From: Chloroflexota bacterium
Lineage (GTDB): Bacteria; Chloroflexota; Dehalococcoidia; Lucifugimonadales; Lucifugimonadaceae
Assembly: GCA_002719295.1 (NCBI GenBank)
Contig: PBHC01000005.1
Coordinates: 145,721-159,713, forward strand
Direction of reading: 5' to 3'
Length of the DNA: 13,993 nucleotides
Below are positions 7,462 to 8,857 of the stretch, one piece after another. Each line of letters begins with the position of its first letter. Positions within the stretch are counted from its first letter, which is position 1. The position numbers and the translations under genes were made by a program. The notes beneath the pieces are model-generated. The model saw nothing but the letters and a program-made list of their open reading frames with translations, did no database searches and was not told the origin of the DNA.

Positions 7462-7648
7462 TTATATTGAAAATAAAAACTTAATTATATCTCCATCTGA
7501 AACAAGATATTCTTTACTCTCTTAATTTAAGTTTACCTCGATTTCTAAATTCAATTAGAGATTTTATTTTAATAATTTCATAAAAATTTATGAATTCTGA
7601 TCTAATAATTCCTTTTTTAATCTCTGAATGTATTTTAGCAGTTAATAT
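7462..7648 (-). pseudogene. ychF: Frameshifted remnant of a ychF 3' end (TGS/DUF933 C-terminal region)
   Basis: Manual minus-strand translation gives ILTAKIHSEIKKGIIRSEFINFYEIIKIKSLIEFRNRGKLKL (7648-7523). After one extra base near 7522 it continues ESKEYLVSDGDIIKFLFSI-stop (7521-7462). This aligns without gaps to the intact YchF C-terminus AREIHTDFEKGFIRAEVVSYKDYVTFQGEKKSKEAGKMRVEGKDYIVEDGDVIYFRFNV. Confidence 0.88.
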
Positions 7649-7675
7649 TAGATAACGAGAAGGCAGAAGTTTGAA

Positions 7676-8773
7676 TCAAACGTTGAATCTGAAATATATT
7701 ACATCCCCATCTTCGACTATATAGTCTTTTCCTTCAACTCTCATTTTTCCAGCCTCTTTAGATTTTTTTTCGCCCTGAAAAGTGACGTAGTCTTTATAAC
7801 TAACAACTTCAGCTCTAATAAATCCTTTTTCAAAATCAGTATGAATTTCTCTTGCAGCTCTTGGTGCATTAGAACCTTTTGAGATAGTCCAAGCTCTAGA
7901 TTCTTCAGGGCCTGAAGTAAAATAAGTAATAAGATCAAGAAGTTTGTAGCCAGATTGTATTACTTGTTCTAATCCAGATTCCTTTAATCCCAAAGCTATT
8001 AAATATTCGTTTTTTTCTTCGTTATTTAATTGAGATATTTCAGATTCTATTTTGGCTGAAATTATAATTGAAAGAGCATCTTCTTCATTGGCAATTTCTT
8101 GTACTAATTTTGAGTACTTATTTCCAATAGTTGCATCTTCTTCTGAAACATTGCATATATAAAGTACAGGTTTACTTGTAAGTAATTGTAAGTTTTTAAA
8201 TTTAGGTTTATCAGCTTCAGAAACTTTTAATAATCTAGCTGGTTTTCCTGTACTTAATAAATCATGAACACTAGTTATGATAGGTAATAATTCTTTTGCT
8301 TCACTCTCTCCAGATTTAGCTTTTTTTTCAATTGATGGAATCCTTGATTCAATACTTTCCAGATCCGATAGCATTAATTCAGTTTCAACTATTTCGCTAT
8401 CTTGAATAGGGTTAATAGTTCCATTTACGTGAACTATATCTGGGTCTTCAAAGCATCTTATAACATACGCTATAGCATCCATTTCACGAATATTTGCAAG
8501 AAATTTGTTACCTAATCCTTCACCTTTGGATGCTCCTTTTACTAATCCTGCGATGTCTACGAATGACATTTTTGTAGGTATTATAGATTTGGAATCACTT
8601 ATAGTGGCTAATGTTTTTAAACGACTGTCTGGAATTGCAACTTCACCTACATTTGGATCGATAGTGCAGAAAGGGTAATTTTCTGCTTGAGCATTGCTAG
8701 TTTGGGTTAAGGCGTTAAATAATGTTGATTTCCCGACATTAGGCAACCCAACTATTCCACATTTAAATCCCAT
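7676..8773 (-). CDS. ychF: Redox-regulated ribosome-binding ATPase YchF (Obg family)
   Basis: GIVGLPNVGKSTLFNALT, NYPFCTIDPN, FVDIAGLVKGASKGEGLGNKFL, LITYFTSGP, IHTDFEKGFIRAE and DGDVIYFRFNV. AAGGA SD upstream. Confidence 0.98.
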   Translation of the reverse strand: MGFKCGIVGLPNVGKSTLFNALTQTSNAQAENYPFCTIDPNVGEVAIPDSRLKTLATISDSKSIIPTKMSFVDIAGLVKGASKGEGLGNKFLANIREMDAIAYVIRCFEDPDIVHVNGTINPIQDSEIVETELMLSDLESIESRIPSIEKKAKSGESEAKELLPIITSVHDLLSTGKPARLLKVSEADKPKFKNLQLLTSKPVLYICNVSEEDATIGNKYSKLVQEIANEEDALSIIISAKIESEISQLNNEEKNEYLIALGLKESGLEQVIQSGYKLLDLITYFTSGPEESRAWTISKGSNAPRAAREIHTDFEKGFIRAEVVSYKDYVTFQGEKKSKEAGKMRVEGKDYIVEDGDVIYFRFNV

Positions 8774-8857
8774 TACACTTCATCCTTATTTCTATATTAA
8801 ATATTTATAAATTCTTGCTGTTCATTTTTCTTTAAAGCATAGTCAGGATTCGAATTC

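Follow-up and report, generated by a model that had tools for sequence, protein, structure and literature searches.

Xenologous gene displacement in situ was reportedly described in mosaic operons by Omelchenko et al. in 2003 (Genome Biol 4:R55). According to the accessible part of Price et al. 2006 (PMC1480536), the mechanism of such in situ replacements remains unclear. Two described ways of joining foreign DNA are also close to the present case. Homology-facilitated illegitimate recombination (HFIR), as set out in the available portion of PMC3240628, inserts about 1 kb while about 1 kb is deleted and shows short microhomology at the joint. In SPDIR, patches of 3 to about 100 bp of foreign DNA are joined at microhomologies on both ends. 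Concerning ychF transfer in SAR202 or Chloroflexota, nothing was found in the literature covered, and a prior mention is possible as most subscription papers and supplements lay outside that coverage; the accessible part of PMC12641178 likewise contained nothing on ychF transfer in Chloroflexota.

The window analyzed here is the whole 13,993-nt stretch of contig PBHC01000005.1 (positions 145,721 to 159,713 of the forward strand; contig C5 of the host genome). The host is a marine SAR202 bacterium of genus g1, and its genome is low in GC, comprises 1.27 Mb and is 81% complete. The sequencing runs containing this stretch were mostly marine metagenomes, and other database records displayed the identical gene order with YchF proteins 91-93% identical to that of the window. 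The native ychF gene of this genome was lost from its locus, and an intact foreign ychF stands there between fragments of donor and native DNA (Table 1).

Table 1. Features of the ychF locus in the order of transcription (window coordinates)
Feature	Position	Strand	Basis
DUF1232 gene, native upstream neighbour	8858..9166	-	PF06803, E 2.3e-10; precedes native ychF in G002, G008 and G009
Probable fossil of the native ychF start, ~7 codons; its ATG overlaps the DUF1232 stop	8842..8861	-	15/22 bases identical to G002
Donor-derived: last codons of protease gene, donor intergenic DNA and ribosome-binding site	8774..8841	-	match to G168
Intact foreign ychF, 365 aa, canonical motifs	7676..8773	-	TIGR00092, 489.6 bits (cut-off 279.2)
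Donor DNA: 3' end of the convergent typA, decayed	7637..7675	+	28/39 columns identical to DNA behind G168 ychF
3' joint, ~10-nt microhomology between donor typA antisense strand and native codons 298-300	7633..7642	-	alignment
Dead tail of native ychF, codons 298-356, one +1 frameshift at ~7522	7462..7642	-	
Conserved 240-aa hypothetical gene; native neighbour downstream, with hemW and selB behind it	6710..7432	-	

Gene order and RNA contigs of the locus

The DUF1232 gene of the window is presumably YkvA-like, and hemW was identified by TIGR00539. In the three genomes of the same genus that retain a native ychF (G002, G008 and G009), the gene string reads holA, DUF1232, ychF, the 240-aa hypothetical gene, hemW and selB. 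The native gene occupies the same place as the foreign one, in agreement with the preserved operon position of the original prediction. The hypothetical gene was located directly behind native ychF in G016, G020, G021 and G024 as well as in these three. As a side observation, selB (3779-5524 in the window) was present here, in G002 and in others, and was not found at the same locus in G007, G010, G016 and G017.

The promoter scan returned 15 promoter-like sites against 12.9 expected, and no terminator was found. In one metatranscriptome, which may include DNA, one contig covered 6810-7519 (from the downstream gene into the dead tail) and another covered 7639-7837 (from ychF into the typA scrap). 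No RNA family was found at the joints, and no mobility family was found among the 13 window sequences scanned.

Remnant of the native ychF gene

The original prediction held that the apparent gap at 7433-7675 encodes a YchF C-terminus with one +1 frameshift near 7522. This was reproduced: the minus strand encodes about 59 codons in two frames with one extra base, and both pieces matched PF06071 (E 6.4e-5 and 3.3e-3). A PF06071 search of the whole genome, at the 81% completeness of its assembly, returned three matches, all of them here, one to the intact gene and two to the pieces of the remnant. The more complete genomes G007 (97%) and G421 (96%) showed one PF06071 match each.

The two remnant pieces were 23% (39 aa) and 53% (19 aa) identical to the adjacent intact protein, compared to 56-59% and 74% for the intact native YchF of G002, G008 and G009. 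At the DNA level, the remnant matched native ychF of G002 in 127 of 175 columns (73%), a score reached by 0 of 2000 block shuffles, and its own neighbour in 100 of 169 columns (59%), a score reached by 3 of 2000 shuffles. Furthermore, all eight tails tested fell with the native genes of genus g1 in a DNA tree (98/96). These results agree with the earlier proposals that the remnant is of the native Chloroflexota type and too diverged from its neighbour for a recent tandem duplication.

Among the 13 genomes of genus g1, eight carried the foreign type (84-100% identical to that of the window), three carried the native type, which is 32% identical (G002, G008 and G009), and no ychF was found in two. 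In one further record (L036, genome G010, 7297-7758), an HPP-family membrane gene (PF04982) was inserted within the dead tail.

Ancestry of the intact ychF gene

The intact protein showed 92.6% amino acid identity to YchF of G168, a member of family f50, and about 31% to native YchF of G002. In an order-wide scan, 383 of 401 genomes had a match and 26 had a copy of the window's type (63% identity or more). These were four genomes in f1, all 21 f50 genomes with a match (two f50 genomes had none), and G059 of family f36. The next best match after the 26 copies had an E value of 3e-75. Across 151 genomes sampled from the phylum, the top match outside g1 reached 51%.

In the trees, the window gene grouped with genus g63 of f50 (100/100), and native SAR202 YchF lay far outside. 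The f50 ychF itself fell within Alphaproteobacteria (100/98 and 100/100), and a single clade of all Chloroflexota YchF was rejected (p-AU 0.002). Two YchF trees drew on 61 and 52 of the rows and used LG+G4 without a mixture model, the proteobacterial rows being the best matches of one scan. L051-L053 and L069 were omitted as likely duplicates and G116 because of an assembly gap; the apparently split ychF of G116 was rejected as real for this reason. Judged from these trees, the ychF of the donor family was shown to descend from Alphaproteobacteria.

The intact gene had been proposed to be foreign and alphaproteobacterial. Its ancestry was supported in this way, but the direct donor is genus g63 of SAR202 family f50. 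The start MGFKCGIVG, which had been taken as an alphaproteobacterial feature, is not specific to that class, as the two best solved-structure matches of the intact protein begin with the same residues. These two matches are presumably gammaproteobacterial. The suggested check of codon usage and GC3 did not reveal the transfer: there was no GC or GC3 contrast, with a GC3 of 17.2% in ychF and 14.8-21.5% in 11 other window genes.

Several other YchF copies were observed in the course of these searches. In the f50 genome G144 (L149, 1320-3981), the alpha-type ychF follows holA and DUF1232, which hints that the first transfer from Alphaproteobacteria to SAR202 also occurred in situ. Five SAR202 genomes of other families (L047, L155, L161, L165 and L168) contained a second, distinct YchF-like paralogue, also without the canonical motifs. 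A contig titled Lactobacillaceae (L116) encoded a YchF inside an alphaproteobacterial clade and is probably mis-binned.

Donor scraps and joints

In g63 (G168 and G073), ychF lies between a trypsin-like protease gene (Trypsin_2) and a convergent typA, and the stop codons of typA and ychF overlap. The 39-40 nt behind the window ychF stop aligned with the antisense end of G168 typA at 28 of 39 columns (0 of 2000 dinucleotide-block shuffles). The DNA before the ychF start, a scrap of about 47 nt, aligned with the protease end, spacer and ribosome-binding site of G168 at 40 of 48 columns (0 of 2000 shuffles). The upstream gap at 8774-8861 thus also consists of fossil sequence, which the original prediction had overlooked.

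The typA scrap scored 38-40 against both g63 typA tails, compared to a maximum of 24 for 11 further typA tails, and no typA above the cut-off was found in the 10 g1 genomes searched. An origin of the scrap from the typA of g6 itself or from other typA genes was rejected on this score comparison. The scrap was significant in four of nine carriers tested, as well as in G421 and G446, and was recognizable in only some carriers. Since the protease gene and typA are whole in g63 and mere scraps in g1, the direction of transfer was from g63 to g1; these alignments show both the donor lineage and the direction. Separately, a short contig of G421 without ychF (L303, G421:C2) carried a second typA that is 70% identical to the g63 type, through either transfer or binning contamination.

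At the fixed position of the native start, 15 of 22 bases were identical to the G002 native start (binomial p 2.5e-4), and 17 of 22 were identical in G003 (p 6e-6). Free local alignment of this fossil in the window alone was not significant (251 of 2000 shuffles). The first seven or so native codons thus probably survive upstream of the donor scrap. About 1.2 kb was inserted and about 0.87 kb removed, corresponding to native codons 8-297 of 356. The claim that the 5' 80% or so of the native gene was displaced at its own locus was therefore right in extent, but it was the middle of the gene that was replaced.

The 5' joint was located at about 8840-8846 with a microhomology of about 7 nt, which is less certain than that at the 3' joint, where the microhomology includes mismatches. 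The joints fall at native codons 4-7 and 298, beside stretches of 64% and 72-81% DNA identity. Native and donor ychF DNA are 47.6% identical overall, and their best patches reach 64-86% over 36 nt. No repeat pair, terminal repeats or target duplication was found at the two joints. Insertion by a mobile element was rejected, since neither terminal repeats nor a target duplication was found at the joints, nor a mobility gene among the 13 window sequences scanned.

Assembly of the joints

The original prediction had called for a check of the junctions. Contigs spanned the 3' joint in four of four runs from four studies and the 5' joint in two of four, although one of these runs possibly stems from the source sample itself. 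Neither joint was covered in a fifth DNA run. A separate metagenome contig (L181) displayed the same layout with 99.57% identity over 6095 nt, and the joints recurred in other genomes. Independent contigs thus confirmed that the layout does not stem from a chimeric assembly. The outcomes named beforehand as contrary to the prediction did not occur: the intact copy did not branch with the host lineage, the remnant was not a simple duplicate, the junctions were spanned, and the remnant matched the YchF C-terminal family.

Probable spread among g1 and into g6

The g1 carriers formed a clade in the flank tree (100/99) and in the rpoB tree (94/95). In both trees, they were sister to native-bearing g1, and g6 was placed elsewhere beside native-bearing lineages; the two trees disagree on g5, a long branch. 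In all five g6 genomes, the foreign ychF begins with a native-style start that joins it in frame at the P-loop, and the 3' joint has the same position. The typA scrap was still clear in two of them (G446 and G421). Grouping of the g6 tails with g7, the sister of g6 by rpoB, was rejected (p-AU 0.0006), and a clade of g1 tails only was compatible with the data (p-AU 0.14).

The differences between dead tails showed a third-position excess at p<0.05 in none of 36 pairs (12/10/13 by codon position for G000/G004), although few sites were available and power was low. In contrast, the differences between the window's tail and native G002 were distributed 15/7/28 with a third-position excess (p 0.0008). 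Because differences among tails are even over the former codon positions, the tails appear to have diverged after death from one dead copy, with the same reservation on power.

The dead tails were 80% alike in G000/G004 and 76% in G000/G003, whereas fourfold sites of the flanking genes were 45-58% and 42-50% alike, respectively. The composite likely moved sideways, because its dead tails are far more alike than the synonymous sites of the flanking genes; AT-rich decay can draw dead tails together in trees. Fourfold sites of ychF were 72% alike in G004/G003 against 30-37% in the flanks, and 67% alike in G004/G168 across families. In several genome pairs, and across families, ychF was thus nearer than its flanking genes. 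Furthermore, a flank-gene clade of five g1 genomes was rejected by ychF DNA (p-AU 0.0017). The composite is therefore likely younger than the species splits and spread laterally. The ychF DNA tree was mostly without resolution and does not order the transfers: neither a single clade of the f1 copies nor one uniting G168 and G073 was rejected (p-AU 0.34-0.41).

A different arrangement was observed in G059 of family f36 (L342, G059:C5, locus 1500-1614, and L140). Its f50-type ychF, 94% identical in amino acids to that of G319, lies behind a phosphotriesterase-family gene, and only the last 30 or so native ychF codons are left at its holA-DUF1232-hemW locus. This was an independent replacement by another route, with the f50-type gene elsewhere in the genome. 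The sister genome of G059, G107 (97% complete), had zero PF06071 matches.

Proposed mechanism and alternative explanations

The best explanation, which we consider probable, is that about 1.2 kb of g63 DNA replaced native codons 8-297 through two short-homology joints, and that the composite, likely of single origin, then moved laterally within g1 and into g6. The gene was relayed from Alphaproteobacteria to f50 (g63) and from there to g1, and then likely to g6. The incoming g63 fragment would have joined native ychF at two short shared sequences. Targeting may have come about by pairing where the two distant genes are best conserved, because both joints border such patches. The foreign gene may be expressed from the native operon with the ribosome-binding site of the donor. 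The composite of foreign gene, donor scraps and dead tail would then have spread by recombination among g1 species and into g6, and a selective gain from the canonical motifs may keep the foreign gene in place.

Against this explanation, the first event would have proceeded without a long homologous anchor, given the low overall DNA identity, and the donor scraps are seen in only part of the carriers. Classical transformation is without support, because ComEC and DprA were found in none of five genomes searched, two of which are 96-97% complete. recA was found in four of the five. Contig C19 of G000 repeats the end of contig C12 at 99.7-99.9% identity; this redundancy of the assembly accounts for the two recA matches there. 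Among viral contigs, none carried a relative.

The evidence for lateral spread bears on the rather unlikely alternative of a single replacement in the ancestor of the eight g1 carriers, with vertical descent, later g63 recombination that refreshed the gene body and the scraps, and a separate hand-over to g6. The clade of g1 carriers in both species trees fits one ancestral event as well as it fits a sweep, tail similarity partly tracks the species tree (G000 with G004, and G005 near G007), and G003 and G004 are each as near to G168 as to most g1 copies. However, g63 donors have no native tail and would be unable to refresh it, and yet the tails are 76-80% alike while synonymous sites of the flanks are near saturation. 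Two successive one-sided events of the HFIR type are possible but doubtful. A P-loop crossover with a typA microhomology joint would have given the g6 form, and a later event in g1, with the foreign gene as the anchor, would have added the donor 5' end. The fusion of a native-style start at the P-loop together with the typA joint in five of five g6 genomes corresponds to HFIR geometry as given in the accessible part of PMC3240628. The g6 form is also explained if the two P-loop copies of the g1 form later underwent a crossover or lost the DNA between them, and the intermediate was not seen in any of the eight g1 carriers.

Transfer from an alphaproteobacterium directly into the window lineage, as the original prediction implied, is highly improbable: the best named matches outside SAR202 are alphaproteobacterial, at up to 67% identity, but YchF of G168 in SAR202 f50 reaches 93%, and the scraps on both sides match neighbours of ychF in g63. 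Least probable, to the point of being negligible, is either a chimeric assembly or a tandem duplication of ychF in which the second copy decayed. The remnant is weakly similar to its intact neighbour (direct repeat D1, 71% over 58 nt), but it is nearer to the native genes of sister genomes, and independent runs span the joints, which are also seen in other genomes.

An extension of the replacement by g63 DNA can be offered as a tentative idea, less likely than the replacement itself. The dead tail and the P-loop codons would act as two homology arms, making the composite a self-targeting replacement allele that swept from species to species and reached a second genus. At least four replacements (f50, g1, g6 and G059) in small-genome marine SAR202 would have been driven by selection favouring a canonical, redox-switchable YchF over the native type without the motifs.

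YchF motifs and possible benefit

The intact window YchF contained G1-G4 and the TGS domain and scored above the TIGR00092 cut-off. The native g1 protein formed a very long branch, and the G002 copy scored under that cut-off (235 vs 279.2). The switch-I motif and DxxG were present in all 13 foreign f1 copies, all 20 f50 and G059 copies, and all 75 proteobacteria-type rows, and in none of 49 native SAR202 YchF proteins. In E. coli YchF, Cys35 is the site of redox dimerization according to the accessible text of PMC8779481, and the switch-I cysteine of the foreign YchF would correspond to it by alignment. A selective gain is conceivable, given that the incoming protein brings DxxG and a switch-I motif that includes the redox cysteine, and native SAR202 YchF has neither motif. 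The repeated replacement of ychF also suggests a benefit.

Significance

The locus supplies base-level joints and a named donor for a replacement process whose mechanism is called unclear in the accessible part of PMC1480536. It also shows that a core gene associated with translation has passed between SAR202 families.

The near-universal ribosome gene ychF is used as a marker, and we take it to be COG0012. SAR202 profiling at Station ALOHA relied on COG0012 alone, which was presumed to be transferred very rarely (accessible part of PMC6779783), and COG0012 is among the ten mOTU genes (accessible part of PMC6399450). Classification by ychF puts family f50, most of g1, g6 and G059 within the Alphaproteobacteria and divides g1 into two parts; trees built from many genes should be little affected. 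Furthermore, sister species with native and foreign YchF at one locus provide a natural comparison for the roles of switch I and the redox cysteine.

Comparison with known systems

Compared to the canonical YchF/Ola1 ATPase (TIGR00092; accessible part of PMC8779481), the intact gene has G1, the switch-I cysteine, DxxG, NxxE and the TGS domain, whereas the displaced native SAR202 type is without the switch-I motif and DxxG. SPDIR resembles the window in its joining at both ends, but the window insert of about 1.2 kb exceeds the patches of that process. The window form acts as a replacement joined at microhomologies. It agrees with HFIR, as described in the available portion of PMC3240628, in the 3-10 bp microhomology and in a deletion of similar size. 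It differs in having short-homology joints at both ends, which lie in flanking genes of the donor, in the absence of the long anchor, and in that competence genes were not found. The g6 form, with one in-gene crossover and one microhomology joint, is more alike.

The closest system is in situ xenologous displacement, in which a distant homologue occupies the native site within a conserved string of genes, and the native gene itself has disappeared. All of its features were found here: the native position in relatives, the tree conflict, the lack of an intact native copy, and the lack of a chimera. The ychF case was thus confirmed as an unusually well resolved instance of this known process. 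It differs from other such displacements in that both joints, both native ends and the scraps of both donor neighbours are readable, and in that the donor is named to genus within a relay transfer. Distinctive of this locus are therefore its readable donor, its three-step relay, and the fact that the displaced gene is a standard marine marker.
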